Notes: generated from the letters alone by a model not told the origin. Positions 13,426 to 60,747 are shown, numbered from the stretch's first letter. The stretch: 64,000 nt of DNA from Anaerolineae bacterium (GCA_034433515.1 DAOUAL010000021.1:317-64316); one strand, 5' to 3'. Program-made: numbers and translations.

Positions 13426-13938
13426 TCATGTGCGCCACCTGGCCATCAAGGCTTTTTCGACAGCCGAGCGCCGTCCTCGGTGAACAGGGGGTGACCAGGC
13501 AGGCGGCGGCACACGGGAGGAGAGCAATTCTTGAACCGTCCAGCAGTGATCGGTGATCCCGGCAGCAGTGGCCGGGGTGCGCGGAATCCACTTGTGACCA
13601 CCGATGAGGCCCGGCACCCGCAGACTACGCTGGTAGGTACAAAAGTTGTAGACGCAGCCCATCAAGTAGATCAAAGGTGCCAGCGTGTGCGGGCGGCGCA
13701 GCAGGGCGCGTGTCCGTCTCGCCAACACCGCTAGTAGTGCACCAACATGAAAGTGCGTCGTGGAAACTTGATACTTTGCCGTCTCGGTAACCATTTTTCC
13801 ATTGGTCTGGTATGCAACTATTTCATGTTGTTGCACTAGGCGCGACCGAAAGGTGGCGTTGAATCGTTCGAGGTAGGCTGTGGGGATGCCGCCGCGAACC
13901 TGTGTGGCTTGTACCAGACGATTGCCGCGATGCCGCAC
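13426..13938 (-). pseudogene. C-terminal fragment of a DDE transposase (IS1-like tail), interrupted by MITE copy 1
   Basis: Reads ...YLERFNATFRSRL[35-aa insert]AVLARRTRALLRRPHTL...YNFCTYQRSL...TPATAAGITDHCWTVQELL. No catalytic N-terminal part, no plausible start, no terminal repeats seen. Confidence 0.6.
13731..13839 (-). mobile_element. MITE-like element copy 1 (109 bp, subfamily A, long form)
   Basis: CTAG at both ends. Terminal inverted repeats GTGCA(A/C)CAACATGAAA. Net 105-bp in-frame insertion in the transposase fragment. Confidence 0.85.
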
Positions 13939-14027
13939 GGGGTGGAAGCGGATACTTGGCGAGTTGGATCAAGTCAGCAGGATGAAGAACGAAGAACTCT
14001 TTTGCCTGTATCCTTTAGGTGTTGACT

Positions 14028-14160
14028 ATGGCAAACGAAAAAAATTCTGATCATTGACGATGACGACGATCGGTGTTGGCGATGCGCTTGCGGCTCGGAG
14101 CCGCGGGGGACACGGGCACGACCTTTGTCATCACTTTTCCAATTTTGATCGAGTTACCGG
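14028..14160 (+). pseudogene. scar fusing a response-regulator N-terminus to a histidine-kinase C-terminus
   Basis: ATG GCA AAC GAA then an A7 tract. One frame gives KILIIDDDDD (receiver start), broken by the poly-A frameshift. A downstream frame gives RLRLGAAGDTGTTFVITFPI, typical of an HATPase_c end. Total length is far too short for either gene. Confidence 0.3.
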
Positions 14161-14215
14161 GTCCAAGTGTCCAAAAGCGTTCAAAAATAATCAGAATTGA
14201 TCCTCAAAAAGATAC

Positions 14216-14244
14216 TTGACGAACAAAAACAATCGTGGTATACT
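14216..14244 (+). promoter_or_regulatory. sigma-70-type promoter of the DeoR regulator gene
   Basis: TTGACG, 17-nt spacer, TGg-TATACT (extended -10). Confidence 0.5.
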
Positions 14245-14247
14245 CAC

Positions 14248-14273
14248 AAGCAGAGACCAACGGGTCTCTGCTT
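14248..14273. promoter_or_regulatory. perfect 11-bp inverted repeat just after the -10 (candidate operator or 5' hairpin)
   Basis: AAGCAGAGACC-aacg-GGTCTCTGCTT, located between the promoter and the DeoR start codon. Confidence 0.4.
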
Positions 14274-14301
14274 GCCTCATTCTATCCCCCTGAGTGTGCC
14301 G

Positions 14302-15111
14302 ATGAAAACGCTGGTTCAGGATGATTTTATTCCAGCTGAACGCCACGAATACATCCTCAATCTGATTCAGCAGAAAAAAGCGGTACGCGTGTCTGCGTTG
14401 AGCAAAGCGCTGGGTGTTTCCGACATCACGATTCGACGTGATTTGGAATACTTGGAAAGGCAAGGTGTTTTGGAGCGCACGCACGGCGGCGCGATTTTGA
14501 CGCAGCGGATGCGGCAAGAGCCGTTGTACACACAAAAAGAACGTCTGCAAATCGAAGCCAAGCGCGCGATTGGGCGCGCCGCCGCGCAATTGGTGCAACC
14601 GGGCGAGACGATTTTTGTCAACAGTGGTTCGACGACGCGCCAGATGTTCGCGCATCTGGGACAGCTGCCACGGTTGCGCGTGATCACCAGCAACGCTGCC
14701 GCCATCGCGGAACTGGGCAATCATTCGGAATCCATCGAGCTGATAGTCGTGGGTGGCACGTATCGCTGGCAGTCCAACAGTTTGGTAGGGCCCCTCGCGC
14801 TGGCTACGATTGCGCGGATCAACGCCTCCAAGACTTTTTTGGGGGTAGATGGCATCAGTATTCAACATGGTTTGACTACACCCATTCAAGACGAAGCCGA
14901 AGTGGCGCGCGCGATGATTGCGCAGACGCGCGGCGCGATTATCGTCGTGGCGGATCACACCAAGATTGGTGTCGTCGCTGACTTTGTGACCTGCCCGCTT
15001 CATCGCGTTGCGACGATTGTGACCGATGCGCGTCTCAATGCCCAGTGGCGCAAGACGCTGGAGGAACAAGGCATTCGCGTTATCGTTGCCAAGTCAACGT
15101 CGCAAGTTTGA
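14302..15111 (+). CDS. DeoR/GlpR family transcriptional regulator
   Basis: N-terminal DeoR HTH (VRVSALSKALGVSDITIRRDLEYLERQG) plus C-terminal sugar-phosphate-binding domain. Start placed at ATG 14302 (MKTLVQ); the ORF-track start 14197 precedes the promoter. Confidence 0.85.
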   Translation: MKTLVQDDFIPAERHEYILNLIQQKKAVRVSALSKALGVSDITIRRDLEYLERQGVLERTHGGAILTQRMRQEPLYTQKERLQIEAKRAIGRAAAQLVQPGETIFVNSGSTTRQMFAHLGQLPRLRVITSNAAAIAELGNHSESIELIVVGGTYRWQSNSLVGPLALATIARINASKTFLGVDGISIQHGLTTPIQDEAEVARAMIAQTRGAIIVVADHTKIGVVADFVTCPLHRVATIVTDARLNAQWRKTLEEQGIRVIVAKSTSQV

Positions 15112-15483
15112 TGGGAAGGGAGGTGAACCACGCCAACGATTCGTTCGACCAATGGTTCGCGGTTTAGACATTTCGAGAATACCTACCGCGCAGCGGTCGG
15201 TTCGCCATCAGAAACCGGCGCGCGCTCCAGAACGTCCCCGAATAATGAATTTCTTCCGTACCCGATGACATTCGCTGCAACCAAGACCCCAAGCCGCCCG
15301 CCGGCGGCTGAACGGCAAACCTGCCTGCGCAGGTTGGAGACGAGTTGGCGACTCGCCTGTCCTAGACGCGATTTCAATCGCCAGAGGTAGGATGTTACCA
15401 ATTTATTTTCTTAAAATTCATACTTCGGGGGCTGACGAGGTGGAAACTCGATCAATCAGGTTGGTCGCGCGCGCTGTGCGGGC

Positions 15484-15505
15484 AACACGCTTCAGCGTGT
15501 TTTTC
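15484..15505 (+). terminator. intrinsic-terminator-like hairpin in the leader of the ABC operon
   Basis: AACACGC-ttca-GCGTGTT followed by TTTT, 65 nt upstream of the SBP start codon. Confidence 0.35.
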
Positions 15506-15570
15506 ATCTCACTGAGCCACCGATTTCAATCGGTGGCAACGCCGCAAATTTCTGGGTAGAAGGAGAACAG

Positions 15571-16977
15571 ATGAAAACCCAAACAGTGATCGTTTTGGTT
15601 TTGCTTGCGTTGGTGTTAGCGGCATGTGCGCCAGCGGCTACGCCGGCGCCGACGGCGACCGTGCCAGCCGCGAAACCGACCACGCCTGCTGCACCTGCGG
15701 CGCCTGCCACGCTGCCGATTGTGGGCGCGGATGTCAAGCCCGCGGCGACGGAAGTATTGTTCTGGCACGCGATGAGTGGGAGTCGCGGGGATGTCATCAA
15801 GGCGTTCGCTGAAGATTTTAACAAGACGAACCAGTACGGCATCACCGTCAAGCCCGAGTACACCGGCTCGTACGCCGAGACGGTGACCAAGGCACTGGCG
15901 GCGTACAAGACCGGCAAGCCCCCCCACATCGTTCAGGTGTACGAAGTGGGAACACAAACGATGCGCGATTCTAAAGCCATCGTGCCGATCTACACGTTGA
16001 ATCGGGGGGATGTGGACTTTGGGGATGTGGTGCAACCCATCGTCAAGTACTACAGTGTGGGCGGTCAAGTGGTGTGTATGCCGTTCAACAGTTCGACCGC
16101 GATGTTGTACTACAACAAGGACGTGTTCAAGAAGGCGGGTCTCGATCCTAACAAACCGCCGACGACGTTCGATGAGATGTACGAGTACGGCAAAAAGATC
16201 GTGAGTAGCGGCGCCGCCAAGGGCGGTGTCTCGTTTGGTTGGCCCGCCTGGATCTTTGAGCAAATGTTCGCGACGCACAATCAGTTGTATGCGAACAATG
16301 ACAACGGGCGCAGTGGTTTGGCAACGGAAGTGTACATCAACAGCCCCTTTGGTGTAAAGGTGTTGGGTGAATGGCAAAAGTGGGCAAAGGAAAAAGTGTT
16401 GGTGTATGGTGGTCGCGAGTACGACGCGAACGCGCCCTTCCTCGCCGGCGAATTTGCGATGCTGGTGCAGTCTACTTCGTCGCTGGGTGGGATCCAGAAC
16501 AGCGCCAAGGGCAAGTTCGAGCTGGGCACCACGTTCTTGCCGCGCTTGCCGGGCTATCCGTCGGGTAACTCGGTTGTCGGCGGGGGCTGTCTGTGGGTGA
16601 TGAAAGGTCGCTCGGACGCGGAGAATCTTGCCGCGTGGGAATTCCTCAAGCACATCAACAAACTGGAGAACCAAATCACCTGGCACAAAAAGACCGGCTA
16701 TTTCCCCGCCACGAACACTGCTGTCACATCGCTCCTGAACGAGGGATGGTTCGCGCAACAACCGAATTACATCACCGCGTTTATGCAAATTCTGTTGGGC
16801 GTGGATACCCCTGCCGCCCGCGGGGTGTTGCTTGGCAACTTTGTCGAAATCCGTGACGTGGTCGGCGCGGCGATTGAAGAAGTCGTTGTCAATATGAAAG
16901 ACCCCAAGACCGTGTTGGACGACGCCGCCAAAAAGACCAATCAGATTTTGAAAGACTACGCCGAAGTCAACAAATAG
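15571..16977 (+). CDS. ABC transporter substrate-binding lipoprotein (family 1, UgpB/MalE-like)
   Basis: Signal peptide with lipobox (LALVLAAC), Ala/Pro/Thr-rich linker, family-1 solute-binding fold. GGAG 8 nt upstream. Confidence 0.85.
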   Translation: MKTQTVIVLVLLALVLAACAPAATPAPTATVPAAKPTTPAAPAAPATLPIVGADVKPAATEVLFWHAMSGSRGDVIKAFAEDFNKTNQYGITVKPEYTGSYAETVTKALAAYKTGKPPHIVQVYEVGTQTMRDSKAIVPIYTLNRGDVDFGDVVQPIVKYYSVGGQVVCMPFNSSTAMLYYNKDVFKKAGLDPNKPPTTFDEMYEYGKKIVSSGAAKGGVSFGWPAWIFEQMFATHNQLYANNDNGRSGLATEVYINSPFGVKVLGEWQKWAKEKVLVYGGREYDANAPFLAGEFAMLVQSTSSLGGIQNSAKGKFELGTTFLPRLPGYPSGNSVVGGGCLWVMKGRSDAENLAAWEFLKHINKLENQITWHKKTGYFPATNTAVTSLLNEGWFAQQPNYITAFMQILLGVDTPAARGVLLGNFVEIRDVVGAAIEEVVVNMKDPKTVLDDAAKKTNQILKDYAEVNK

Positions 16978-17072
16978 TGCGCCGCATTCGCTCGGTCGGC
17001 AGCTCGGATAGTCAGGCGCGTCCGTGCGTCTGACTATCCGACTTGCGACGAGATGCCGCATACAACAAGACT

Positions 17073-17954: not shown

Positions 17955-17957
17955 GCG

Positions 17958-18815
17958 ATGACCGTGATGCCTCTGGCACGCCCCCGCTTTTCGCCGCTGC
18001 GTCTTGGGCGCGCGCTCTCGGCGCACGCCGTTATGTTGTTCGCCGTCGCGCTGACCTTGTTCCCGATGTTGTACGCGCTGTTGGTCAGCACGCAGACGAC
18101 GCAAGAGTATTACACCTTTCCGCCCAATCTATTGCCCGGCACAGGCACGCTGCACAACTATACCGTCGCGTTCGAACGCGCCGCGCTGGCGCGCTTGGTC
18201 TTGAACACGACCATCATTTCGCTTGCCGTTGCGTTTGGCAAAATGCTGTTGAGTGTCACGGCGGGCTTTGCCTTCGTCTATTTTGATTTTCGCGGCAAGT
18301 TGGTCTTTTTCGTTCTGATTTTCCTGACCCATATGCTCCCGGTACCGGTGCGGATCGTGCCGACGTTTCAGCTGATGGATCAACTGGGGTGGGTCAATAC
18401 GTACTGGGCGCTAACCGTGCCGTTCTTCGCGAGCGCGACAGGCACACTCTTGTTTCGTCAGTTGTATATGACGGTGCCGGCTTCGCTTGCCGATGCGGCG
18501 CGGATAGACGGTGCGGGACCCTTGCAATTTCTCTGGAACATTATCGTCCCAATCTCGCGCACCAATTTGATGGCACTTTTTTTGATTGAATTTATTTATA
18601 TGTGGAATCAGTACCTGTGGCCCCTCATCGTCGCCAACACCGAAACGACGCGTGTCATTCAAGTCGGCTTGAAGGTACTGATTGCCACCGACGCGGCGGT
18701 GGAGTGGAATATCGTGATGGCGGGTGTCGTTGTGGCAATGATTCCCCCGCTCATTGTCTTGCTGTTGACACAAAAGAGTCTCATCACGGGCTTGTCTTTG
18801 TTCGAGGAGAAGTGA
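17958..18815 (+). CDS. ABC transporter permease (UgpE/MalG-like)
   Basis: EAA loop DAARIDGAGPLQFLWNIIVPI. GGAGGA upstream of ATG 17958. Confidence 0.85.
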   Translation: MTVMPLARPRFSPLRLGRALSAHAVMLFAVALTLFPMLYALLVSTQTTQEYYTFPPNLLPGTGTLHNYTVAFERAALARLVLNTTIISLAVAFGKMLLSVTAGFAFVYFDFRGKLVFFVLIFLTHMLPVPVRIVPTFQLMDQLGWVNTYWALTVPFFASATGTLLFRQLYMTVPASLADAARIDGAGPLQFLWNIIVPISRTNLMALFLIEFIYMWNQYLWPLIVANTETTRVIQVGLKVLIATDAAVEWNIVMAGVVVAMIPPLIVLLLTQKSLITGLSLFEEK

Positions 18816-18969
18816 GCAATCATCCACCTAAACGAACCACACTGTGAAAATATCGCTCCAGTCGCATCTGTGATATAATTGATGAGACCGCGCATGGTAC
18901 ACCTTCGGGGGAAGTGGGGTTCTTCACTCCATAGGGTATCATGCGGGTCATTTTTGTAAAGGCGGCAAA

Positions 18970-19078
18970 CCAGTGCAACAACATAAAATAGTTGCATACC
19001 AGACTGAGGGGAAGACATTGACAGACGTGGCTAAAAATCGAGTTTCTACCACGTACTTTCATGTTGGTGCGCTACTAG
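18970..19078 (+). mobile_element. MITE-like element copy 2 (109 bp, subfamily B)
   Basis: cCAG...CTAG flanks, the same terminal inverted repeats, subfamily B core GGGAAGACATTGACAGACGTGGCTAAAAATCGAG. Confidence 0.85.
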
Positions 19079-19168
19079 CAATGACCTTTTGAGTCGCCCC
19101 AGCCGACTTGGCGACAGTCCTGGGCGCGTGATTCAGGGAACGTGCGTTCGGATGAAAAATGGAGGTTC

Positions 19169-19355
19169 GTCGTAGGCCGTAGGCGATTGATCGCCACATT
19201 GACACGGCACGATGAATCGCACGACTACAAGCCTATGGCGCGATATTGCAATTTTCCAAAATAATCTGATAGAGGATGCTTGAACATCTGGTTTGTAGTA
19301 GGCGATTGATCGCCTATTCAGGCGGCGCGATGAATCGCGTAACTACAAACCTAAA
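19169..19355. repeat. two copies of a ~57-nt double-hairpin repeat
   Basis: Copy 1 at 19169-19235 and copy 2 at 19294-19353. Each has GGCGATTGATCGCC and (G)CGATGAATCG(C) hairpins enclosed by an outer stem (GTCGT/ACGAC versus GTAGT/ACTAC) and ends in TACAA(G/A)CCTA. A partial third tail lies at ~19400-19435. Confidence 0.7.
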
Positions 19356-19425
19356 TCGCGTAGGGTGCGCAAGCCACTATTAGATTATTTTGTTAAACTG
19401 CAAAATCGTGCGATTACAAGCCTAA

Positions 19426-20304
19426 TCAGTGGGGGATCACATGCCAAAACATCTGCCGTGTCTGTTCCCATCGGTTGATCAGCGCGCGTGCCCACTCACT
19501 GCCGGTCACCTCGGCGTGCCGTTGCACGAGTGAATACAAGCGGGACTCGGTCGCCGGGTGGTCCAGGCGTTGCGCGCGCACGAGTTGCGCATTCATCCGC
19601 TTGGCGAGAATGTTTTCGCTATCATAGACGAATGCCTCCCCGCCGGTCATGCCCGCGCCAAAATTTCGCCCGACGGTTCCCAGAATAACGACAGTGCCGC
19701 CTGTCATGTACTCGCATCCGTGATCGCCCACCCCTTCGACGACAGACAGCGAGCCGCAGTTGCGGACGGCAAAGCGTTCGCCGACGCGCCCAGCGGCAAA
19801 AAGCATTCCACCGGTCGCACCATACAACAAGGTATTGCCCGCGATGAAATTTTCGTTCGTCGCCCAACGCGCCTGCGCCGGCGGCCGCAAAACAATTTCG
19901 CCGCCCGCCATGCTTTTACCCACGTAATCGTTTGCCTCGCCGATGAGGGTGAGATGCATGCCGTTGATGCAGAACGCGCCAAAACTCTGCCCCGCACTGC
20001 CGTGGAACGTCACGCGAATGGTGCCCGGCGGCAACCCCGCATCGCCGTAGCGCCGTGCAATTTCGCCGGCAAGTCGCGCGCCTACCGTACGGTCGGTGTT
20101 GTGAATCTCGTGCTCGAGCACAATCGGTGTGCACGCTTCGACGGCGGGCAAGGCAGCAGCACACAACCAATCATCGAGCGTCTCGGCGGGCAGGGGATCG
20201 TTCCGTGCTTGAACATTACGTCGCGGGCGAGTCCACGTAGGATCAGGATCAATCAGCATTCGCCCTAATTCGATTTGTGGCACTTGCCAGGATTGGTTGA
20301 GCAA
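19426..20304 (-). CDS. gltB: glutamate synthase C-terminal GXGXG domain protein
   Basis: GSAGQSFGAF, GEANDYVGKSMAGGEIVL, GATGGMLFAAGRVGERFAVRN, GCEYMTGGTVVILG, GAGMTGGEAFVYD. TTG 20304 has GGGAGA 7 nt upstream; alternative start ATG 20259. Confidence 0.85.
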   Translation of the reverse strand: MLNQSWQVPQIELGRMLIDPDPTWTRPRRNVQARNDPLPAETLDDWLCAAALPAVEACTPIVLEHEIHNTDRTVGARLAGEIARRYGDAGLPPGTIRVTFHGSAGQSFGAFCINGMHLTLIGEANDYVGKSMAGGEIVLRPPAQARWATNENFIAGNTLLYGATGGMLFAAGRVGERFAVRNCGSLSVVEGVGDHGCEYMTGGTVVILGTVGRNFGAGMTGGEAFVYDSENILAKRMNAQLVRAQRLDHPATESRLYSLVQRHAEVTGSEWARALINRWEQTRQMFWHVIPH

Positions 20305-20351
20305 GAATCATCTCCCTGTTGGTAGAGGGCGCGGTATAGCACCCGCCGAAC

Positions 20352-20451
20352 CGAGTGCAACAACATGATAGTTGCATACCAGACGGAGGGGAAAATGGTT
20401 ACCGAGACGGCAAAGTTTCCACTACGCCCTTTCATGTTGGTGCACTACTAG
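20352..20451 (+). mobile_element. MITE-like element copy 3 (100 bp, subfamily A, short form)
   Basis: cGAG...CTAG flanks. Its terminal CTAGTAG provides the TAG stop (20450-20448, minus strand) of the large glutamate synthase ORF. Confidence 0.85.
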
Positions 20452-23400
20452 TCGGTCAGCAACGCGCTGTTGAGGACTGACCATTTGACATCTTGCATCC
20501 CGCGCGCCAGAGTGCCGCGTTCGCCTTTGGGGCGCGGGTTAAATTTCAAGCGTTCAACGTGCCCAATCGCTTCCTCGAACGAGCGCATCCCCAGCGCCGC
20601 GAGATACTCGCGTGTCTCTTCGGCGATGAATTGAAAATAAGCCATAATGCGTGTGGGATCGTTCGGAAATTTTTTGCGCAAGTCTTCGCGCTGGGTGGCG
20701 ATGCCGGTCGGGCAGGTGTTGGTGTGGCACACGCGTGCCATAATGCAGCCCGCCGCCACCAGCACCGCCGTGCCAAAGGACACCTCGTCGGCGCCCAGCA
20801 GGGCAGCAACGATGACGTGGCGCGCTGTTTTGAATCCCCCGTCCACACGCAGCCGCACCCGTCCGCGTAAATTGTTGGCGACGAGCACTTGTTGTGTCTC
20901 GGCGAGTCCCAGTTCCCAGGCGATCCCGGCATGCTTCATCGAACTGAGCGGCGAGGCGCCGGTGCCGCCGGAATGACCACTGATCTGCACAACATCGGCG
21001 AACGCTTTGACGACGCCGGCGGCAATCGTGCCGACGCCGGCTTGGGCGACCAACTTGACCGAGACCTTGGCGCGCGGATTGATGCGTTTCAAATCGTACA
21101 CCAACTGCGCCAAATCTTCGATGCTGTAAATGTCGTGGTGCGGCGGCGGCGAAATCTGCGCCGTGCCCGGCGTCGTGTAGCGAATTGCCGCAATCTCCGC
21201 CGACACTTTGGTGCCCGGCAGTTGCCCGCCTTCCCCAGGTTTTGCACCCTGCGCAATTTTGATTTGCAATTCGTCCACCCAGGTCAAATAGGCGGGCGTC
21301 ACGCCGAACCGCGCGGAGGCGACTTGCTTGATGCGGCTGTTGCTTTCGGTTTGGTAGCGCGAACGATCTTCGCCGCCTTCCCCGGCATTGCTCATTGCGC
21401 CCAAGCGATTCATCGCAATCGCAATGGCTTGGTGCGCTTCGAGCGAGAGAGCACCGTGCGACATAGCAGCCGCCGAAAAGCGTTTGAGAATCGCCGAGGC
21501 GGGCTCGACTTCGGAGAGCGGAATCGGATTGCCGAACAAGATGTCGAGATGGTCGGACAAATCGCCGGACGAATAGTCGTGCACTTGGAGGGTGAATTGG
21601 CGATACTTGTCGTACGCGCTTTGAAAATTGCCGTTCAACACGCCGGGCGCCGTGACGGCGCTGTGCAGGGCTTTGACGACGGCTGGGTTGAAACTGTGAT
21701 ATTCGCCTTCCTTTTTGTATTTGTAAAAGCCATAGTTCTTGAGATGCAAGTGCGCTTCGTCTTCGCGCTGAAAGGCGTGCACGTGATGGGCAAAGACAAT
21801 GCGCGCCAGGTCGCGTAACGAAATCCCGCTGATATGATTCGGCGTACCGGTGAAATAGCGATTCACCACTTGATCCGCCAGTCCGATGATTTCGAAAATC
21901 TGCGCGCCGTGATACGCATCGAGCGTAGCGATGCCCATCTTCGCCATAATTTTGAGCAAGCCCTTTTCTGCCGCACGCACAAAATTTTCTTCGGCGCGCG
22001 CCGGCGAAAGGGCCTTTTCGTCACCTTCGCCTAGCGGTGAGGGGCGACCCGGGCGAAATGCCGCCAAGGTGCGCACACTCGCCAACGCGAGATAGGGATT
22101 GATCGCGTCCGCGCCGTAACCGAGGAGACACGCAAATTGATGCACGTCGCGCGCATCCCCTACTTCGGCGATGAGACTGGTGCGCCAGCGTTTGCCCACG
22201 CGCAAGAGATGATGATGCACCGCGCTGACAGCGAGCAGCATGGGAATCGGCGCGCGGGTGGCTTCGGTCACGCGGTCGCTCAAAATCAAGATGACGTTCC
22301 CAGCATTGACCGCGCGTTCGGCTTGCGCGCACAAGTTTTCTACCGCGCGTTCGAGCGCATCCTCATCCTCGCTCACCGCAAAGGTTGCACTGAGCAACGC
22401 ATGCGGAAATTCGTTGTCCATCGCGCGAATTGCATCGAGTTGCGAGCGCGTGAGCAAAGGACTGTCGAGTTCGATCAGATGCGCGTGTGTAGGGGATTCG
22501 TCGAGCAGGTTGCCGCGTGCGCCCAGTAGTACGCGCAACGACATCACCAACGTTTCGCGCAACGCGTCGAGCGGTGGATTGGTCACCTCGGCAAAGCGTT
22601 GTTTGAAATAGTGATACAACGGCCGCTCAAATTCCGAAAGAACTGCCAGCGGCGTATCGTCGCCCATAGACCCGATCGGTTCGGTGGCTCCGATAGCCAT
22701 AGGGCGCAGCACGACCACCAGTTCCTCGTCGGTGTAACCAAAGAGCGCTTGCTGGCGCGTGACCGAAACGCCTTCGCCTTTGCGCGGCGCGCTCGACGTA
22801 ACCGGCAAGCGTTTCATCTGCGCGTCGAGCCATTGCTGGTAGGGCTGGCGCGTTGCGTAATGATTCTTGATGTCGGCATCGTGCCAGCGTTTGCCGCGCG
22901 ATACATCCACGACGAGGCATTGCCCGGGCCCCAGTTTCCCTTTTTCGACGATGCGCGCCGGATCAACTTCCAAGGCGCCGGCTTCGGAGGCTGCGACAAT
23001 CAAGCCATCATCGGTAACCAGGTAGCGCACCGGACGCAAGCCATTGCGATCGAGGGCGATGCCGACGATTTGTCCATCGGAGTAGGCGACGGCGGCGGGA
23101 CCGTCCCAAGGTTCCATCAAGGTCGAGTGATAGCGATAGAATGCTTTCCACGCTTCCGGCAAGTCGTCAATTTTTTCCCACGCTTCCGGCATCAGCATCA
23201 ATTGCGCGTGCACCAGGTCGCGTCCGGCGAGCGCGAGCAATTCAAGCGCGTTGTCGAGCATTGCCGAATCGCTGCCCGTCGGATCAATCACGGGCAAGAG
23301 CGACTGGGCATCGTCAAAGAGATTCGACGCGAGGTACGGTTCGCGCGCACGCATCCAAGTAACGTTGCCTTGTAAGGTGTTGATTTCGCCATTATGGCAG

Positions 23401-24131
23401 AGGAAGCGAAAGGGTTGGGCGCGTTCCCAGTTGGGAAAGGTGTTGGTGCTATAGCGCTGGTGAAAGAGCGCGAGGGCGGTTTCGTAGGCTGGGTCGCGCA
23501 GGTCGGCATAAAAGTTAGCGAGTTGAAAGGAGATAAGCAAGCCCTTGTACACCAGCGTGCGCGACGAAAGCGACGGGATGTAGAACGGTTCCAGCTCTGC
23601 AACGCGCGCGCGTCGTTCGATTTCTTTGCGCGCCACAAAGAGGGCACGTTCGAAGGCTAGCCCAGCCGCGAGGTGGGACGGTCGTGCCAACAACACTTGC
23701 TCGATGTGCGGACAAATCGAGCGGGCGTGGTCGCCTAGCACATCGAGGTCAATGGGCACGGGCCGCCACGCGAGAATCGGCAGATGGTGCGTTTCGAAAA
23801 CGGCTTGGATGATTTGTTTGGCTTGGCTCCGCGCCGTCACATTGGTGCGCGGTAAAAAGAACACGCCTACCGCCAGATCGCCGCGCGCCGGCGCGACCAA
23901 GCCAAGGCTTTCAAGTTCGCGAGCAAAGAAACGATGCGGAATTTGCGTGAGGACGCCCGCCCCATCGCCGGTGCGCGCATCCGCCGCAATCGCACCACGA
24001 TGCGCCAGACGATTGAGCGTGGCGAGGGCATCTCGCAAAATAGCGTGCGAAGGTTGCCCGGTCAAGTGGGCGATGAAACCGGTCCCGCAGTTGGCACGCT
24101 CGCGCCCAGCAAACGATTCAACCGAAGGCAT
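20448..24131 (-). CDS. gltB: glutamate synthase large chain lacking the GXGXG domain (amidotransferase + central + FMN domains)
   Basis: 1227 aa. Ntn-amidotransferase N-terminus (..RERANCGTGFIAH). FMN domain with GHSGGTGASP. Ends in the linker after the FMN domain (..LNSALLTD*). Confidence 0.9.
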   Translation of the reverse strand: MPSVESFAGRERANCGTGFIAHLTGQPSHAILRDALATLNRLAHRGAIAADARTGDGAGVLTQIPHRFFARELESLGLVAPARGDLAVGVFFLPRTNVTARSQAKQIIQAVFETHHLPILAWRPVPIDLDVLGDHARSICPHIEQVLLARPSHLAAGLAFERALFVARKEIERRARVAELEPFYIPSLSSRTLVYKGLLISFQLANFYADLRDPAYETALALFHQRYSTNTFPNWERAQPFRFLCHNGEINTLQGNVTWMRAREPYLASNLFDDAQSLLPVIDPTGSDSAMLDNALELLALAGRDLVHAQLMLMPEAWEKIDDLPEAWKAFYRYHSTLMEPWDGPAAVAYSDGQIVGIALDRNGLRPVRYLVTDDGLIVAASEAGALEVDPARIVEKGKLGPGQCLVVDVSRGKRWHDADIKNHYATRQPYQQWLDAQMKRLPVTSSAPRKGEGVSVTRQQALFGYTDEELVVVLRPMAIGATEPIGSMGDDTPLAVLSEFERPLYHYFKQRFAEVTNPPLDALRETLVMSLRVLLGARGNLLDESPTHAHLIELDSPLLTRSQLDAIRAMDNEFPHALLSATFAVSEDEDALERAVENLCAQAERAVNAGNVILILSDRVTEATRAPIPMLLAVSAVHHHLLRVGKRWRTSLIAEVGDARDVHQFACLLGYGADAINPYLALASVRTLAAFRPGRPSPLGEGDEKALSPARAEENFVRAAEKGLLKIMAKMGIATLDAYHGAQIFEIIGLADQVVNRYFTGTPNHISGISLRDLARIVFAHHVHAFQREDEAHLHLKNYGFYKYKKEGEYHSFNPAVVKALHSAVTAPGVLNGNFQSAYDKYRQFTLQVHDYSSGDLSDHLDILFGNPIPLSEVEPASAILKRFSAAAMSHGALSLEAHQAIAIAMNRLGAMSNAGEGGEDRSRYQTESNSRIKQVASARFGVTPAYLTWVDELQIKIAQGAKPGEGGQLPGTKVSAEIAAIRYTTPGTAQISPPPHHDIYSIEDLAQLVYDLKRINPRAKVSVKLVAQAGVGTIAAGVVKAFADVVQISGHSGGTGASPLSSMKHAGIAWELGLAETQQVLVANNLRGRVRLRVDGGFKTARHVIVAALLGADEVSFGTAVLVAAGCIMARVCHTNTCPTGIATQREDLRKKFPNDPTRIMAYFQFIAEETREYLAALGMRSFEEAIGHVERLKFNPRPKGERGTLARGMQDVKWSVLNSALLTD

Positions 24132-24527: not shown

Positions 24528-24636
24528 CTAGTGCAACAACATGAAATAGGTACATACCAGACGGATGGGAAGACGTTGACAGATGTGGCTAAAAATTGAG
24601 TTTCTACCACGTCCTTTCATGTTGGTGCACTACTAG
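24528..24636 (+). mobile_element. MITE-like element copy 4 (109 bp, subfamily B)
   Basis: CTAG at both ends. Lies about 400 nt upstream of the gltB start. Confidence 0.85.
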
Positions 24637-25060
24637 CCACCTTGTCTATTCGCCAGGGCAGGTGTGAAATCTAGGCTGAGGTTCAAGCAGTTGGGTAACC
24701 AGACGGGCAACATGGGGATGTGGGATCTGCCTAAACCTTTTCTAGCATAAGGGAGTGTATGCCAAATCTGTCCAGCCGTCTACGGACAAGATATTTAAAT
24801 TGTAACGGCTTGCCTTTGTGTAGGTTGCCTAATTGCACAATGTCCCGGCGGGCTAGCGAGTTCTCATCCGAAAAGCGTAAGAGGTGGGTGACCTTTCTAG
24901 GTCGCTGTGTTTGGCGGGCTAGAAAGCCCACGTCCACGAAAAGCCCACGCCCACGCCACGAAACTGGCGAGCACCGTCTTGTTGCAACAGTGCCGAGCCA
25001 TTCGGCGCCCAAAAATATCCAAGCACGTTCGCGCGCTAACCGAGGCGATGAATGACGGTG

Positions 25061-25390
<330 letters not shown>

Positions 25391-40255: not shown

Positions 40256-40357
40256 CTAGTGCACCAACATGAAATAGTTGCATACCAGACCGATGGAAAA
40301 ATGGTTACCGAGACGGCTAAGTTTCCACTACGCACTTTCATGTTGGTGCACTACTAG
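40256..40357 (+). mobile_element. MITE-like element copy 5 (102 bp, subfamily A, short form)
   Basis: CTAG at both ends. Perfectly complementary 16-nt terminal repeats GTGCACCAACATGAAA / TTTCATGTTGGTGCAC. Confidence 0.85.
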
Positions 40358-46301: not shown

Positions 46302-46313
46302 GTGTCTGCTTGT

Positions 46314-46397
46314 GGAGGAGTGCCGGAGTGGACTATCGGCGCCGCCTTGAAAGCGGATGGGTCAAAAGCCACGGAGGTTCGAATCCTTCCTCCTCCG
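46314..46397 (+). tRNA. tRNA-Ser (anticodon TGA), no encoded CCA
   Basis: Hand-folded cloverleaf. Acceptor GGAGGAG/CTCCTCC, anticodon loop CTTGAAA, long variable region, T-arm GGAGG-TTCGAAT-CCTTC, discriminator G. Confidence 0.85.
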
Positions 46398-46473
46398 TCG
46401 GAGTGACGTGCGGCGAGTGCCGAGTGTCGTGCGCAAGTGCCACGTCACCCGACCCTTGGCACACGCAACATTT

Positions 46474-46569
46474 GGAGGGGTCGCATAGCCTGGTCTAGTG
46501 CGGTCGCCTGCTAAGTGACTGTAGGGGTCTTGAAAGCCTCTACCGCGGGTTCAAATCCCGCCCCCTCCG
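46474..46569 (+). tRNA. tRNA-Ser (anticodon GCT), no encoded CCA
   Basis: Acceptor GGAGGGG/CCCCTCC, anticodon stem GTCGC/GTGAC with loop CTGCTAA, 7-bp variable arm, T-arm GCGGG-TTCAAAT-CCCGC. Confidence 0.85.
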
Positions 46570-46660
46570 CTCTAATTCGTTGCATCGTTTCATCGTTACG
46601 TCGTTGGTGTGGTTCAATGCTTTTATCAAAGCAACGATTGAACGAAGCAACGCCGAAGAA

Positions 46661-46734
46661 CTCCCCGTAGCGCAATTGGATAGCGCGCAGCCCTGCGGAG
46701 GCTGAGGTTGCGAGTTCAAGCCTCGCCGGGGAGG
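46661..46734 (+). tRNA. tRNA-Arg (anticodon GCG), no encoded CCA
   Basis: Acceptor CTCCCCG/CGGGGAG (C1-G72), D-arm GCGC-AATTGGATA-GCGC, anticodon stem CAGCC/GGCTG with loop CTGCGGA, T-arm GCGAG-TTCAAGC-CTCGC. Confidence 0.8.
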
Positions 46735-46738
46735 CAAC

Positions 46739-55183: not shown

Positions 55184-55189
55184 CCTCTC

Positions 55190-56264: not shown

Positions 56265-56315
56265 CATCGCGCGTTACCGATGATCATAAAATTTTCCCTA
56301 AATGGAGGTTGAGCC

Positions 56316-56801
56316 ATGTCCGAACTCAAGATCGGTGATGTCGCGCCGGATTTTACCGCACCCGGCGTCATCACCAAACCCGAAGTGCAACGCCTCGAAA
56401 TCAAACTAAGTGATTATCGCGGCAAAAAGAATGTGGTGTTGGCATTCCATCCCTTTGCCTTTACCGCCCTCTGAGACAAGCAAATTCCTTCCTACGAAGC
56501 GCAACTCGCCGAGTTCGAAGGATTGAATAGCCAGGTTCTGGCTATCAGTTGTGATCCGATTTTTTCCAAGCAAGCGTGGGGCAAATCGCTGGGCGGTATC
56601 TCTTATCCCCTCGTTGCCGATTTCTGGCCCCATGGCCAAGTCTCTCTCGCGTACGGCATTTTTAACGAAAAACTTGGACGCCCCGATCGAGCGATCTTTC
56701 TGGTGGATACAAACGGAATTTTGCGTTGGATCAAAAAATATGAACCCGGAATCCTGCCCGATAATGGTGAACTCTTGACCGAATTGCGCAAACTACGATA
56801 A
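56316..56801 (+). CDS. peroxiredoxin (AhpC/TSA family) with in-frame TGA at the peroxidatic position: candidate selenocysteine protein (or fresh nonsense pseudogene)
   Basis: ATG 56316 (GGAGG upstream). Reads ...[16 protein letters not shown](56472-56474)-DKQIPSYE... and continues in the same frame as ORF 56523..56801 to TAA. PFAFTAL+TGA matches the Prx motif PxxxTxxC. The downstream Arg context RAIFLVD is intact. Confidence 0.7.
56487..56545 (+). promoter_or_regulatory. candidate SECIS-like stem-loops downstream of the in-frame UGA
   Basis: Hairpin 1 at 56487-56521: CCUU/AAGG, CGAA/UUCG, GCG/CGC, loop CAACU, starting 13 nt after the UGA. Hairpin 2 at 56527-56545: AUAGCCAG-GUU-CUGGCUAU, a perfect 8 bp. 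Confidence 0.35.
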
Positions 56802-56817
56802 CGCCAAGCCGGGTTTC

Positions 56818-56926
56818 CTAGTCGTGCACCAACATGCAAGTGCGTGGTGAAAACTCGATTTTTAGCCACATCTGTCAACGTCTTCCCCTCGGTCTGGTAT
56901 GCAACGATTTCATGTTGTTGCACTGG
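56818..56926 (-). mobile_element. MITE-like element copy 6 (109 bp, subfamily B)
   Basis: CTAG...CTGG flanks. Lies 17 nt after the peroxiredoxin stop codon. Confidence 0.85.
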
Positions 56927-56949
56927 CAACCCGGCTTTTTCCAAATCTA

Positions 56950-57321
56950 ATGAGAATCTTTACTCTGGAACAAGCCAATCAACTTATCCCTTACCTCAAC
57001 CAAACCATTGACCAATTAATCGAAATCCGCGATCAACTTGCCCGCGAGGGCGTGCACCTTCATTCCTTGTTGCAACGTGCCAGCGGCAACGGCGGCAATC
57101 AACATAGCAATGCGTACTATCTTTTGCTCGAACGGTTCAATGCGCGCTTGAGCGAATTGGAAGCGTTGGGCTGTGAACTCAAAGACCTGGATCAAGGTCT
57201 AGTGGATTTTCCTTCTTATCGCGACGGCAAGTTCGTTTATCTCTGTTGGCAACGCGGCGAAGATCGCATCCGTTATTGGCACACACGAGAAGCCGGCTTT
57301 GCTGGACGGCAACCTTTGTAA
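56950..57321 (+). CDS. DUF2203 family protein
   Basis: MRIFTLEQANQLIPYL..., GCELKDLDQGLVDFPS, YLCWQRGEDRIRYWH pattern characteristic of DUF2203. Confidence 0.65.
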   Translation: MRIFTLEQANQLIPYLNQTIDQLIEIRDQLAREGVHLHSLLQRASGNGGNQHSNAYYLLLERFNARLSELEALGCELKDLDQGLVDFPSYRDGKFVYLCWQRGEDRIRYWHTREAGFAGRQPL

Positions 57322-57327
57322 TCCACC

Positions 57328-58038
57328 ATGACTCAACTCTGGCTGGTCAATCTCGACCTCGTTCCTTACGCTGACGCGCTTGCGCTGCAACATCGCCTTG
57401 TGGCTGCACGCAAGCGCGGCGCATTAAACGATACCCTCTTGCTCTTGGAACATCCGCCGGTGTTCACGTTGGGGCGGAACGCCACTGACGCGAACATTAT
57501 CGCCACGCCGGAATTTCTTGAACAACAGGGCATCCAAGTCTTTCGCGTGGAACGTGGCGGCGATGTAACGTATCACGGACCTGGGCAACTCGTCGGCTAT
57601 CCCATTCTCGATCTGCACAATTTTCGATTAGACGTGGGCTGGTTTGTGCGATCGCTGGAAGAAATGCTCATTCGTGTCGTCCGCGATTTTGGCATCCCAG
57701 GGAAACGCCTTGACAAGTTGGTGGGCGCGTGGCTGGATACTCCCACCGGCGAAGCCAAGATTGCGCAAATCGGCGCGCGTATCGAGCAATGGATTACCTA
57801 TCACGGTTTTGCGCTCAACGTGGATCCGAATATGGCGCACTTTGATTTGATCGTCCCCTGCGGCATCGCCGATAAAGCCGTCACCTCGCTCCGACGCGTG
57901 CTGAATCATCCCATCGAGATGCGCGCCGTGCGCGAACGCGTTGCCGCACGCTTTGGCGAAGTGTTTGGCGCAAAGATCGTCGAGGTATCGTCCGAAGAGT
58001 TCCAAGTCAGGTTAGAACAAGCCACGGCACCGAGTTGA
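57328..58038 (+). CDS. lipB: octanoyltransferase (lipoyl(octanoyl) transferase)
   Basis: RGGDVTYHGPGQLVGYPIL, KIAQIGARI, VPCGI motifs. Confidence 0.9.
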   Translation: MTQLWLVNLDLVPYADALALQHRLVAARKRGALNDTLLLLEHPPVFTLGRNATDANIIATPEFLEQQGIQVFRVERGGDVTYHGPGQLVGYPILDLHNFRLDVGWFVRSLEEMLIRVVRDFGIPGKRLDKLVGAWLDTPTGEAKIAQIGARIEQWITYHGFALNVDPNMAHFDLIVPCGIADKAVTSLRRVLNHPIEMRAVRERVAARFGEVFGAKIVEVSSEEFQVRLEQATAPS

Positions 58039-58041
58039 TGC

Positions 58042-58734
58042 TCAGGGCAGTTTTTGTTTTTCCGCTTGCTCGATCACATCCCAATGTCGCGCCCGCGCGA
58101 GTGCGGCAAGTTGAGCATCGGGATAAACTGCTACCGGATGTCCCACCATCTCCAACAACGCCAAGTCGCTAATCGAATCGGCATACGCATAACTCGCTGC
58201 AAAATCAAGCGTGATGCCGCGCGCGTTCAACCATTCTTTGGTTAAGCGCGCCTTGTCTGCACCCATACATACCGGCGGAATCACGCGACCAGTACATCGC
58301 CCATCCACAAATTCGAGTGCGGTGCCGACTGTACCAGCAACGCCCAAATGCTCGCCAATCAACTCTAGCGCCGGCGCCAGCATCGCCGAAACAAGTACTA
58401 CGGTGTGGCCATGCGTCACGTGATTACGCAAACGCATAATCAAATCGGGATTCGCGGTGGCTTCGATATAGTGCTCCACCACCCAACGGAACGCCGCCTC
58501 GGTTTGCGCCGTGTCCCAATCTTTGATGAGCGAACCCAGCGTCATCACCCACGGCGTGCGAAATGTCTCTTCATCAATCCATTTGAGTTTGCGCAAATAA
58601 TAAAAAGGCAAATTGCGCAGCATATACCAACGCGTCCGAGCCTTGCCGCCGTGTGCGGCAACATACTGCAACAAGCCGCGCCACATCGTGGCATTGTAAA
58701 GTGTGCCATCTACATCAAAGAATGCCCCAATCAT
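58042..58734 (-). CDS. HAD-IB family hydrolase
   Basis: Motif I FFDVDGTLY and later HAD motifs (VVLVSAM, YADSISDL). Start placed at ATG 58734 with GAGGGA upstream. The ORF-track start 58884 would overlap the divergent gene. Confidence 0.7.
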   Translation of the reverse strand: MIGAFFDVDGTLYNATMWRGLLQYVAAHGGKARTRWYMLRNLPFYYLRKLKWIDEETFRTPWVMTLGSLIKDWDTAQTEAAFRWVVEHYIEATANPDLIMRLRNHVTHGHTVVLVSAMLAPALELIGEHLGVAGTVGTALEFVDGRCTGRVIPPVCMGADKARLTKEWLNARGITLDFAASYAYADSISDLALLEMVGHPVAVYPDAQLAALARARHWDVIEQAEKQKLP

Positions 58735-58877
58735 TCCCTCATCGCCTCCAACGTGATTATAGCACAATTGATATAACGCTACGGGCTCCCGAACAGAAAT
58801 CCCCGGCATCATGCCAACTTGAAACTCGTTGGGCTTGATGTTATAATCCGCCCAAATCTTTTCGATGGAGGGTCGAG

Positions 58878-59561
58878 ATGACAATCAAACTCACGTGGTA
58901 CGGGCATGCTTGTTGGAATATCGAAACTCCCCAAGGGACTATTCTCATTGATCCCTTCTTCACGGGCAATCCCAGCGCGCCCACTACCGCCGATCAAGCG
59001 AAAGCGGATTTTATTCTCATTTCGCATGGGCATGGTGATCATTTAGGCGATGCGGTACCGATCGCCAAACGCACCGGCGCACTCATCATCAGCAACTATG
59101 AAATTGCCTCGTATTGCCAGAGCCAAGGTTGCAAAGCGCATCCCCAGCATATCGGGGGCAGCCGCGATTATCCGTTTGGTAATCTGAAATTGACGATTGC
59201 GCATCACGGCTCCTCCTTCCCCGATGGTCGCTACGCGGGCAACCCTGCCGGTTTCTTGCTCACTCTGGGCAAAACCAAAATTTACGATGCCGCCGACACC
59301 GGCTTGTTTTTCGATATGAAACTGATCGGTGAAGAGGGCATTGATCTGGCTCTGTTACCGATTGGCGATAATTTTACTATGGGGCCCGCTGACGCGGTAC
59401 GCGCCGTGAAACTCATTAAGCCCAAAGTCGTCATCCCTATGCATTACAACACGTTCGATGTAATTAGCCAAGACCCCAAATCGTTTGCCACGCGGGTGAA
59501 AAAGGTCTCCCCCAAAACCAAGGTAGTTGTCCTCAAACCCGGTGACTCGTTTTCGATTTAA
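58878..59561 (+). CDS. metallo-beta-lactamase-fold hydrolase (UPF0173-like)
   Basis: MTIKLTWYGHACW N-terminus and ILISHGHGDHLGD (HxHxDH) motif. Confidence 0.8.
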   Translation: MTIKLTWYGHACWNIETPQGTILIDPFFTGNPSAPTTADQAKADFILISHGHGDHLGDAVPIAKRTGALIISNYEIASYCQSQGCKAHPQHIGGSRDYPFGNLKLTIAHHGSSFPDGRYAGNPAGFLLTLGKTKIYDAADTGLFFDMKLIGEEGIDLALLPIGDNFTMGPADAVRAVKLIKPKVVIPMHYNTFDVISQDPKSFATRVKKVSPKTKVVVLKPGDSFSI

Positions 59562-59628
59562 CGGAATACGCAACACGTGCTACGCGATCCGTGTTCCGTC
59601 TAACAAACATTGAGAAGGAGAAGGATCA

Positions 59629-60486
59629 ATGGAGATCAAAACCGTAGGCGTTGTTGGGTGTGGCTTGATGGGCAGCGGCATTGCTGAATTGGTTGCTCGC
59701 AAGGGCTACACCGTCATCGTCCGTGAGATCAACAACGATTTCTTGGCAAAAGGATTGCAACGTATCCAAGACTCGACGGCGTACGCGGTCAAGAAAGAAA
59801 AAATGACCGCTGCCGAGCGCGAAGCGTTGCTGGCACGCATTCGCGGAACAACCCAGATGGACGATTTAGCCACCGCTGATCTGGTCATCGAAGCCGCGAT
59901 TGAAAACCTTGAACTCAAGAAATCCATCTTTGAGGAACTGGATCGCATCACCCGCCCCGATGTGATCCTGGCTTCCAACACCTCCTCGCTTGCCGTCACC
60001 GAGATGGCGAGCAAGACCCGTCGCCCGGACAAGGTGCTGGGTTTGCACTTTTTCAATCCGGTCCCGGTGATGCCCTTGCTCGAAATGGTGCGCACGTTTC
60101 TCACCAGCGAAGAGACGTATCAAACCGCGCGGCGCTGGGGCGAAGGGTTGGGCAAGACCATTATCGTGTCCAAAGATGCACCGGGCTTTATCGTCAATGC
60201 CTTGCTCATCCCGTACCTTCTGGACGCCGTGCGAATGTACGAAAACGGCTTTGCCACGAAAGAGGATATTGACACCGGCATCAAACTGGGGCTGAATCAT
60301 CCGATGGGTCCGCTCACGCTCCTGGATTTCGTCGGACTCGATACTACCCTCTTTATCGCCGACGAAATGTTCAAAGAGACCAAAGACCCACGCTTTGCCG
60401 TCCCCACGTTGTTGCGTCGTATGGTTACCGCCGGCTATCTCGGACGCAAGAGCGGCAAGGGGTTTTACGATTATTCCAGTCGCTAG
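59629..60486 (+). CDS. hbd: 3-hydroxyacyl-CoA (3-hydroxybutyryl-CoA) dehydrogenase
   Basis: Rossmann VGVVGCGLMGSGIA. HFFNPVPVMPLLE and GFIVNALLIPY motifs. Confidence 0.9.
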   Translation: MEIKTVGVVGCGLMGSGIAELVARKGYTVIVREINNDFLAKGLQRIQDSTAYAVKKEKMTAAEREALLARIRGTTQMDDLATADLVIEAAIENLELKKSIFEELDRITRPDVILASNTSSLAVTEMASKTRRPDKVLGLHFFNPVPVMPLLEMVRTFLTSEETYQTARRWGEGLGKTIIVSKDAPGFIVNALLIPYLLDAVRMYENGFATKEDIDTGIKLGLNHPMGPLTLLDFVGLDTTLFIADEMFKETKDPRFAVPTLLRRMVTAGYLGRKSGKGFYDYSSR

Positions 60487-60518
60487 TCGTTAGTCGTTAG
60501 TCATTAGTTGTTAGTAGC
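60484..60518 (+). repeat. five tandem heptamers TAGTCGT-like starting at the hbd stop codon
   Basis: TAGTCGT TAGTCGT TAGTCAT TAGTTGT TAGTAGC. TAG recurs in all three frames. Confidence 0.8.
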
Positions 60519-60641
60519 CAGATGCGAGTTTTGATGGCTGAGCGTTGGAGGGCAAAAACCCAATTGGGTTTCAAACGCGCCTTTTGGCGTGTGGTGGTTT
60601 GCGCTGGCAAACGGATTTGCCGCGCCGCCCGTCGCGTGGCA

Positions 60642-60747
60642 CGAGTAGTGCAACCATATAAAAGTGCGTGGTGAAAACTCGATTTTTAGCCACGTCCGTC
60701 AACGTCTTCCCATCAGTCTGGTAAACTATTTCATGTTGTTGCACTAG
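60642..60747 (-). mobile_element. MITE-like element copy 7 (106 bp, subfamily B with 3-nt deletion)
   Basis: cGAG...CTAG flanks. One terminal repeat is degraded (GTGCAACCATATAAAA). Confidence 0.8.

Follow-up and report, generated by a model that had tools for sequence, protein, structure and literature searches.

Seven copies of a CTAG-inserting miniature inverted-repeat element in uncultured Chloroflexota, with an IS630-type transposase as the likely mobiliser

Seven copies of a short inverted-repeat element

The window examined here is the whole of a 64-kb stretch of DNA from an Anaerolineae bacterium (GCA_034433515.1, DAOUAL010000021.1:317-64316). Among its genes are those for a split glutamate synthase, an enoyl-CoA hydratase, a 3-hydroxyacyl-CoA dehydrogenase and an inositol-1-phosphate synthase. 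Dispersed between the genes are seven copies of a short repeat with terminal inverted repeats (TIRs). The repeat is a genuine miniature inverted-repeat transposable element (MITE). We put at roughly three in four the probability that the seven repeats form a non-autonomous MITE family of uncultured Chloroflexota that inserts at CTAG, with a DDE transposase of the IS630/Tc1-mariner type as the most likely mobiliser.

A first-pass annotation made from the sequence had listed seven copies with lengths of 109, 109, 100, 109, 102, 109 and 106 bp. All seven intervals could be extracted at the listed positions and strands and aligned (Table 1). A profile hidden Markov model (HMM) built from the copies matched exactly these seven in the window, with E values of 1e-30 to 1e-36, and the rest was noise. 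A 16-nt TIR pattern allowing up to 3 mismatches occurred 15 times in the window against 1.0 expected from shuffles, and 13/15 occurrences were ends of the seven copies. The alignment bore out the shared TIRs and the two core subfamilies that had been described. Subfamily A comprises the copies at 13731, 20352 and 40256 and subfamily B those at 18970, 24528, 56818 and 60642; both are also present in a sister metagenome-assembled genome (MAG) described below.

The number of copies with CTAG at both ends had been given as four, and is three (13731, 24528 and 40256). The other 4/7 have a one-base variant at one end: CCAG at 18970, CGAG at 20352, CCAG (CTGG on the plus strand) at 56818 and CTCG (CGAG on the plus strand) at 60642. 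Copies of this length (100-109 bp) have no coding capacity, and no open reading frame (ORF) is common to them. A 170-aa ORF that overlaps copy 1 (13426-13938, minus strand) has no Pfam or other family match. Six copies had been called intergenic, which proves too low, as 7/7 lie between Pfam-supported genes. The apparent overlap of copy 6 with a gene stems from an over-extended DUF2203 ORF, which gene callers carried 17 codons into the element (140 aa vs 123 aa); the extension is absent from the relative with an empty site. Both orientations relative to neighbouring genes were seen.

Table 1. Positions of the element copies and associated features in the window.
Feature	Position	Strand	Description	Setting
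MITE copy 1	13731..13839	-	subfamily A, 109 bp, CTAG/CTAG; HMM E=5e-35	~800-nt spacer between SLFN/AlbA_2-HATPase_c_4 gene (stop 13383) and DeoR regulator ORF (14197-15111)
MITE copy 2	18970..19078	+	subfamily B, 109 bp, left CCAG, right CTAG; HMM E=1e-35	convergent 3' ends of ABC permease (stop 18815) and GXGXG gene (stop 19426)
MITE copy 3	20352..20451	+	subfamily A, 100 bp, left CGAG, right CTAG; HMM match	short spacer between gltB-N (three-domain glutamate synthase, 1227 aa) and separate GXGXG-domain gene
Target CTAG of copy 3	20448..20451	.	minus-strand 20450-20448 is the TAG stop of gltB-N	
MITE copy 4	24528..24636	+	subfamily B, 109 bp, CTAG/CTAG; HMM E=3e-36	~400 nt upstream of gltB-N start (24131)
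MITE copy 5	40256..40357	+	subfamily A, 102 bp, CTAG/CTAG, outer TIR perfect (C-G at TIR position 6)	starts 17 nt past enoyl-CoA hydratase stop (40238)
MITE copy 6	56818..56926	-	subfamily B, 109 bp, CTAG/CTGG (= CCAG); HMM E=2e-36	loop of terminator-like hairpin, ~25 nt upstream of DUF2203 gene
Hairpin around copy 6	56806..56942	+	arms 56806-56815 and 56928-56937, then T-run	
MITE copy 7	60642..60747	-	subfamily B, 106 bp, right TIR degraded, CTAG/CTCG; HMM E=1e-32	convergent 3' ends of 3-hydroxyacyl-CoA dehydrogenase (stop 60486) and inositol-1-phosphate synthase (stop 60795)

Empty sites in close relatives

The genes flanking the copies are of Chloroflexota type, and their closest named homologues are annotated as Chloroflexi or Anaerolineae MAGs. 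Over 16.7 kb the window shares 99.99% identity with MAG GCA_037444225.1 (JBBIMV010000039), a level that places the two in the same strain. Logan contigs of SRR11582170 are 100% identical to the window, and they break inside the copies. The informative relative is a sister MAG, GCA_037440625.1 (JBBITT01, 'Chloroflexota bacterium RVF170221_bin_402'), in which GltB and LipB are 95-96% identical at the amino acid level; nucleotide identity is 93-96% in the flanks and 89-96% over all aligned flanking blocks. It carries the same element on at least 7 other contigs, at loci that match the window at the element alone. Scanning assembled-genome contigs with a 16-nt TIR produced mostly chance matches; among the matches listed, only the sister MAG was informative.

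The first-pass annotation had proposed a comparison with empty sites, and these were found. Where the window has CTAG-element-CTAG, orthologous sites have no element and a single CTAG. (Loci fetched for comparison are given by L number.) At the site of copy 3, the sister MAG (L103) reads ..CTGACAGAC-TAG-GTTCGGCGG.., with a gltB-N/GXGXG spacer of 47 nt, and the window reads ..GAC-TAG-TAGTGCACC...GTTGCAC-TCG-GTTCGGCGG.. In short form, the junction is GAC-TAG-GTTCGG in L103 versus GAC-TAG-(96 nt)..TCG-GTTCGG in the window. This site is empty also in three outgroup loci with 77% nucleotide identity (L104-L106). The site of copy 6 is empty in the sister MAG (L175) and in an 87% relative (L176), both of which have a single (C)TAG in a hairpin loop. 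As the outgroups are empty, sites 3 and 6 represent insertions in the window lineage, and loss by excision from the sister is not the explanation. The sister MAG lacks copies 4 and 7 as well, but there the flanks have diverged too far to define exact junctions.

Ends of the element and the wider family

The outer part of the TIR, about 17 nt, is nearly invariant (AGTGCAMCAACATGAAA), and with a small indel the TIR reaches about 25 nt. Over 22-40 copies of five subfamilies, 14-17 bp of outer TIR are nearly invariant. The end motif, which is opposed at the two termini, is AGTGCAMCAACATGA. The ends are asymmetric: the left end reads CTAG-TGCAAC.. and the right end ..GTGCAC-TAC-TAG, with 3 extra nt on the right in every copy. 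This TAC extension is the most variable part of the end and is offset by a 3-4 nt indel within the TIR. An inner motif (TGC[A/G]T or ACTGCG) is equidistant from CTAG at both ends. Speculatively, the extension could be the fossil footprint of an excision (TA-C-TA). We considered and rejected a symmetric element, GTGCA..TGCAC with TA on each side, as it would need a CTACTAG empty site and the observed site is CTAG.

Scanning metagenomes with an 18-nt TIR generated about 30 further copies, mostly from metagenome Ga0070741. These have the same length and the same termini, CTAG-TGCAACAACATGA ... TCATGTTGNTGCAC-TAC-TAG, around an unrelated core; the right terminus of the Ga0070741-type copies is written as TTTCATGTTGTTGCAC-TAC-TAG. 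Their host is a related member of the Chloroflexota with 64-73% nucleotide identity to the window and partial synteny. Three more subfamilies (L133/L166, L135 and L145) again combine the same termini with unrelated cores. Among 40 copies of the five subfamilies, CTAG is present at the left end of 35/40 and C-TAG at the right end of 36/40. Two adjacent copies in L126 have one CTAG in common. PLSDB plasmids contained no sequence similar to the MITE.

One metagenome copy deserves separate description. In L112 a Ga0070741-type copy directly follows '..GAC TAG' at the start of the contig, 89 nt upstream of the GXGXG gene. It probably occupies the same CTAG at the gltB-N stop codon as window copy 3. 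Since it has the opposite orientation, belongs to another subfamily and is separated from the window by intermediate relatives that are empty, it would be an independent insertion at the same target. The shared target is probable and not more, because just 9 nt of upstream flank are available.

IS630-family insertion sequences near the element

No IS630-type transposase was found in the window at E<=10, either by tblastn or with an HMM of 120 IS630 homologues run against six-frame ORFs, in agreement with the first-pass annotation. A scan of viral contigs for a parent insertion sequence (IS) yielded nothing relevant.

Elsewhere, IS630-family IS occur repeatedly beside the element. The best-defined one is a 1222-bp IS at L146 25-1246 (see also loci L168-L174 and L179-L186), which has CTAG on both sides and TIRs TACTCYGTCACACTGATATTG. 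Its orfA is an HTH_32 protein and its orfB a DDE_3 protein that scores 157 bits against the NCBIfam IS630 model (cutoff 100). An A8 run (L146 535-542) lies where the two frames overlap and is suggestive of a programmed frameshift. The IS is 99.9% identical across seven Joint Genome Institute metagenomes (that of L146 and six others), and this level of identity suggests either recent activity or one widespread host population. Relatives with 77-81% nucleotide identity are present in Ga0070741 and several NCBI assemblies, and every one of them has this TIR and is flanked by CTAG. Three further clusters of IS630 homologues all have a TACTCYGTCAC-type TIR.

The L146-type IS abuts a MITE end in 7/9 readable junctions of the first set, and several metagenomes contain both this IS and the sister subfamily. 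Such frequent adjacency is explained by the scarcity of CTAG, since 60/125 CTAGs in the Ga0070741 loci are MITE ends. A composite transposon (MITE-IS-inverted MITE) was also considered. It was rejected because the IS is found one-sided, beside a MITE of the other orientation, or at a unique CTAG (L171, L172 and L174). In L171 it lies in a palindromic unique site, TCCA-CTAG-IS-CTAG-TGGA. L168 and L171 have a common right flank and different left flanks, so short-read contigs across the IS may be chimeric, which further weakens the composite idea.

Could the L146-type IS, or one of its 77-81% relatives, be the mobiliser despite its imperfect TIRs? We consider this possible but doubtful. These are the sole IS630 elements seen in metagenomes that hold the Ga0070741 subfamily (L132, L155, L157 and L186). 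They share the junction, CTAG followed by TA, and carry TTGCA at the same distance from CTAG as the inner motif of the MITE. In register from CTAG, 14/25 TIR positions agree. This is a TIR identity of about 56%, far under that of usual MITE/IS pairs, and no local similarity extends past the TIR. Adjacency, as noted, follows from the scarcity of CTAG, and the IS is known from metagenomes and other assemblies, not from the genome of the window. Descent of the MITE from this IS by internal deletion was rejected because no local similarity exceeded the null; cross-mobilisation is a possibility.

A second MITE family was noticed in the same contigs. It is symmetric, about 100 bp long and multicopy, reads CTAG-TGCAGCATTAACC...GGTTAATGATGCA-CTAG (L146 1352-1457; also L107, L114, L117, L157, L165 and L182), and often lies directly beside the first family or an IS630-type IS.

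Insertion at CTAG and the likely mobiliser

The element would move by cut-and-paste through a transposase acting in trans. It would integrate at CTAG, and a DDE transposase of the IS630/Tc1-mariner type would duplicate the central TA. An element that starts with G and ends with C would thereby regenerate CTAG on both sides. Every insertion would then add a target, which would explain tandem copies that share one CTAG. IS630 and ISY100 target TA and duplicate it, and IS630 prefers CTAG (PMC2170065, citing Tenzen & Ohtsubo 1991). In L018 and L135 the left flank is TTAG and the right flank CTAG. These flanks favour a duplication of at most 3 bp with the right-hand C as part of the element, and would fit the IS630 model C-TA-(G...C)-TA-G. 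The first-pass annotation had attributed mobilisation to an IS630-type transposase. The MITE and its mobility are supported by the empty sites, and an IS630-type mobiliser is likely from the target preference together with the co-occurrence and adjacency of IS630-family IS that have weakly similar TIRs. We infer to which family the transposase belongs, that the duplication spans 2 bp, and any effects on neighbouring genes.

Several observations weigh against this reading. The filled and empty sites 3 and 6 fit a duplication of C, CT, TA, CTA or CTAG alike, because CTA is repeated. The 3-nt extension at the right end makes the element asymmetric in a way that is atypical of IS630-type MITEs. 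Neither the window, nor the fetched loci, nor the 61 metagenome-scan matches yielded an IS with the TIRs of the MITE at its ends, and that scan would reveal such an IS as two opposed matches about 1.2 kb apart. The evidence for IS630-family IS comes from metagenomes and other assemblies, and the genome of the window was searched over 64 kb only. The match of the L146 TIR to the right TIR of the MITE, although above chance (shuffle p~0.001), is weak. Local alignment of the MITEs with three IS630-type IS copies gave nothing above the shuffled null. Finally, copies differ pairwise by 8-31%, so activity may be old and not ongoing.

CTAG is strongly depleted in these genomes. The window has 59 against 246 expected, of which 10 are at MITE ends, and the Ga0070741 loci have 125 against 947 expected, with 60 at MITE ends. 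MITE ends thus account for 17-48% of CTAG sites. Among the decayed flanks of the MITE copies, 2/4 show a change from CTAG to CCAG, both of them left flanks. This is the direction that Vsr-type very-short-patch repair would be expected to produce.

An extended version of the IS630 scheme, which we regard as unlikely, takes the MITE as a self-renewing landing pad in CTAG-depleted genomes. MITEs and IS630-family IS would pile onto MITE ends as tandem or nested arrays and not into genes. The 3-nt right extension with its compensating indel would mark either an IS630-like transposase with asymmetric end recognition or an excision footprint. The insertions at the gltB-N stop codon and in the terminator loop could be retained as operon or terminator hairpins.

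Among separate explanations, the one that survives best is a transposase of the IS5 family, or another DDE transposase targeting YTAR/CTAG, that makes a 4-bp CTAG duplication as for MITEPsy1/ISPsy2 in Pseudomonas syringae. At a length of 100 nt and with TIRs of 18 nt, MITEPsy1 duplicates CTAG or YTAA (PMC3189936), so CTAG flanks alone are not diagnostic of IS630. Empty sites 3 and 6 fit a 4-bp CTAG duplication as well as they fit TA. We nevertheless judge this explanation distinctly improbable. No IS5-type transposase or element is present in any fetched locus, where IS630-family IS are repeatedly adjacent. The TTAG/CTAG flanks in L018 and L135 are not predicted by a 4-bp duplication without later mutation. 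The termini TGCAAC.. / TAGTGCA.. are also unlike what we take to be the ends of the IS5 group.

A single-strand element of the HUH/Y1 kind, that is REPIN/RAYT or an IS200/IS605-type PATE, would insert 3' of CTAG without duplication, with a CTAG cleavage site of its own at the opposite end. In formal terms such insertion agrees with the filled and empty sites, each copy folds to one long hairpin, and the right end, CTA-GTAG-TGCA, contains the GTAG tag of repetitive extragenic palindromes (REPs) within asymmetric ends. GTAG repeats have been reported in Chloroflexi (PMC3733652), which also counts in its favour. Against it, the ends are true inverted repeats and not two similar subterminal hairpins on one strand, GTAG stands at the right end only, and at neither end do the subfamilies share a conserved palindrome. 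CTAG, the target, is repeated on both sides of the element, which speaks against REPs and REPINs in particular. The symmetric second MITE family and the IS630-family IS use the same CTAG junction on the same contigs. No Y1 transposase was seen beside any copy, although Y1/RAYT genes were not searched systematically. On balance an HUH/Y1 origin is very improbable.

Folding of the element

Single copies fold to a long hairpin with minimum free energies of -24 to -37 kcal/mol and z scores of 0.0 to -5.4, the extreme being copy 5 (-37.1 kcal/mol, z=-5.4). RNAalifold applied to 22 diverse copies recovered just the 14-bp TIR stem, without any compensatory pair; the covariation term was +0.23. TIR position 6 is an A.G mismatch in most window copies, C-G in one, and A-T in the Ga0070741 family. 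Covariation in an internal hairpin, seen by eye in subfamily B, was rejected as it had no consistent register across subfamilies. An Rfam search of the window identified three transfer RNAs only. For the element it gave no match at the gathering threshold, and the sole match at E<=1, plant MIR847 at E=0.44, is noise. The transfer RNAs form a cluster at 46313-46735 (Ser-TGA, Ser-GCT and Arg-GCG). The first-pass annotation had named covarying stems and a longer conserved unit, such as a structured RNA, as what would speak against a mobile element; neither feature was seen, and no Rfam family matched.

We therefore give next to no credence to the view that selection maintains these repeats between genes as immobile structured RNAs or as regulatory hairpins (terminators, RNase III sites or small RNAs). 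In its favour, most copies fold better than shuffles (z down to -5.4), and copies lie near gene 3' ends and, in one case, inside a terminator loop. Against it, close relatives lack the element at orthologous sites, copies are found in either orientation to neighbouring genes, the A.G stem mismatch is tolerated in most window copies, compensatory pairs and Rfam matches are lacking and the cores are unrelated between subfamilies.

Neighbouring genes and other repeats

Copy 6 lies inside a hairpin that we consider a putative terminator. In the sister MAG (L175) the empty site forms a 12-bp hairpin with TAG as its 3-nt loop and T5 after it (-19.8 kcal/mol, z=-3.5); the hairpin in L176 likewise has 12 bp and a following T5. 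In the window, the outer stem and U-run are predicted to persist around the MITE hairpin. A terminator consensus scan did not list this hairpin. Upstream of copy 6 are short AhpC/TSA-like ORFs (52 aa at 56316-56474 in the window; 74 and 95 aa at L176 7881-8432) that have the look of a decaying peroxiredoxin gene.

Copy 3 adds a hairpin of about -29 kcal/mol, including the gltB-N stop codon, to the spacer that is 47 nt in the sister MAG. Host effects are possible both here, between gltB-N and the GXGXG gene, and in the terminator loop, as judged from the predicted folds. The large subunit of glutamate synthase is split in the window (19426-24131, minus strand) and in L103-L106 into a 1227-aa gene with GATase_2, central and FMN domains and a 292-aa GXGXG-domain gene, which has its own Shine-Dalgarno-like GGGAG and a TTG start. 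We asked whether the MITE caused the split, and rejected the idea. The three-domain architecture and length recur in more than 50 homologues with identities as low as 59%, which makes the split a trait of the lineage, and the sister MAG has it with no MITE present.

Around copies 2-4, synteny with the sister MAG is restricted to the gltB-N/GXGXG block. Upstream of gltB-N, all that the window (24677-25369) keeps of leuB (Iso_dh) is a remnant of its 3' end, 74-83% identical in comparison with L103 9080-9686. On the downstream side (18815-19426), homology ends at the GXGXG stop codon, 19426. Copies 4 and 2 adjoin the two synteny breakpoints.

The spacer after the GXGXG gene (19179-19414) contains a GTAG-tagged palindrome, GTAGGCGATTGATCGCC, in two exact copies (19179 and 19298). 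Within the same spacer are a direct repeat of 45 nt, whose copies at 19198 and 19316 are 76% identical, and an inverted repeat of 41 nt with arms at 19235-19275 and 19374-19414. The structure looks REP-like and was seen nowhere else, either in the window or among the fetched loci. Near copy 7, a degenerate 7-nt tandem repeat (GTCGTTA GTCGTTA GTCATTA GTTGTTA GTAG; 60487-60520) directly follows the stop codon of the 3-hydroxyacyl-CoA dehydrogenase gene and is absent from the sister MAG.

Significance and comparison with known systems

A full-text search of the literature found no description of a MITE in Chloroflexota/Chloroflexi. The family is previously undescribed; the kind of element is already known, and no new mechanism is involved. 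It adds for Chloroflexota a well-supported MITE family with clean empty sites, and serves as a marker of recent change in the genomes of two closely related MAGs. In practical terms, the element breaks short-read assemblies and inflates ORF calls. Its target, CTAG, overlaps TAG stop codons and terminator loops, and the family offers a concrete case in which a rare tetranucleotide concentrates mobile-element traffic.

The pneumococcal RUP is about 107 bp long with TIRs, is reported to occur in or near IS, and is thought to be moved in trans by IS630-Spn1 on the basis of TIR similarity (PMC3049150). The window MITE resembles RUP in being non-coding, in having TIRs and many intergenic copies, and in the presence of IS nearby. 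It differs in sequence and host, RUP being an element of Firmicutes, in targeting the full CTAG, and in having ends that are offset by 3 nt. The TIRs of RUP clearly resemble those of a resident IS, whereas no matching IS was found for the window MITE.

Nezha, a cyanobacterial MITE, differs in sequence and in host phylum, and also in that its partner IS has been identified, which we take to be ISNpu3-like and of the IS630 family. An IS630-family mobiliser was proposed for Nezha on TIR similarity (mentioned in PMC3049150).

IS630 of Shigella sonnei and ISY100 of Synechocystis insert at TA and encode HTH and DDE transposases (PMC2170065); the L146 IS is a genuine member of the IS630 family. IS630 and ISY100 are autonomous elements of about 1.0-1.2 kb; the window MITE has no ORF, and its TIRs are unrelated to theirs as far as tested.

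Correia elements of Neisseria are about 100-150 bp long, use TA targets, have no known resident transposase and form hairpins in transcripts; they influence neighbouring genes via promoters, IHF binding and RNase III (PMC2649163). The window MITE is likewise a short TIR element with a TA target and no transposase found alongside. It has no sequence similarity to Correia elements, which are not tied to CTAG, and is known from sequence alone.

For the CTAG flank the closest analogue is MITEPsy1, with a length of 100 nt, 18-nt TIRs, and insertion at CTAG or YTAA with a flanking target repeat (PMC3189936). It differs from the window MITE in being a derivative of an IS5-family element (ISPsy2), with a 4-nt duplication and TIRs GGAAGGTCTGAAAAAGCC.

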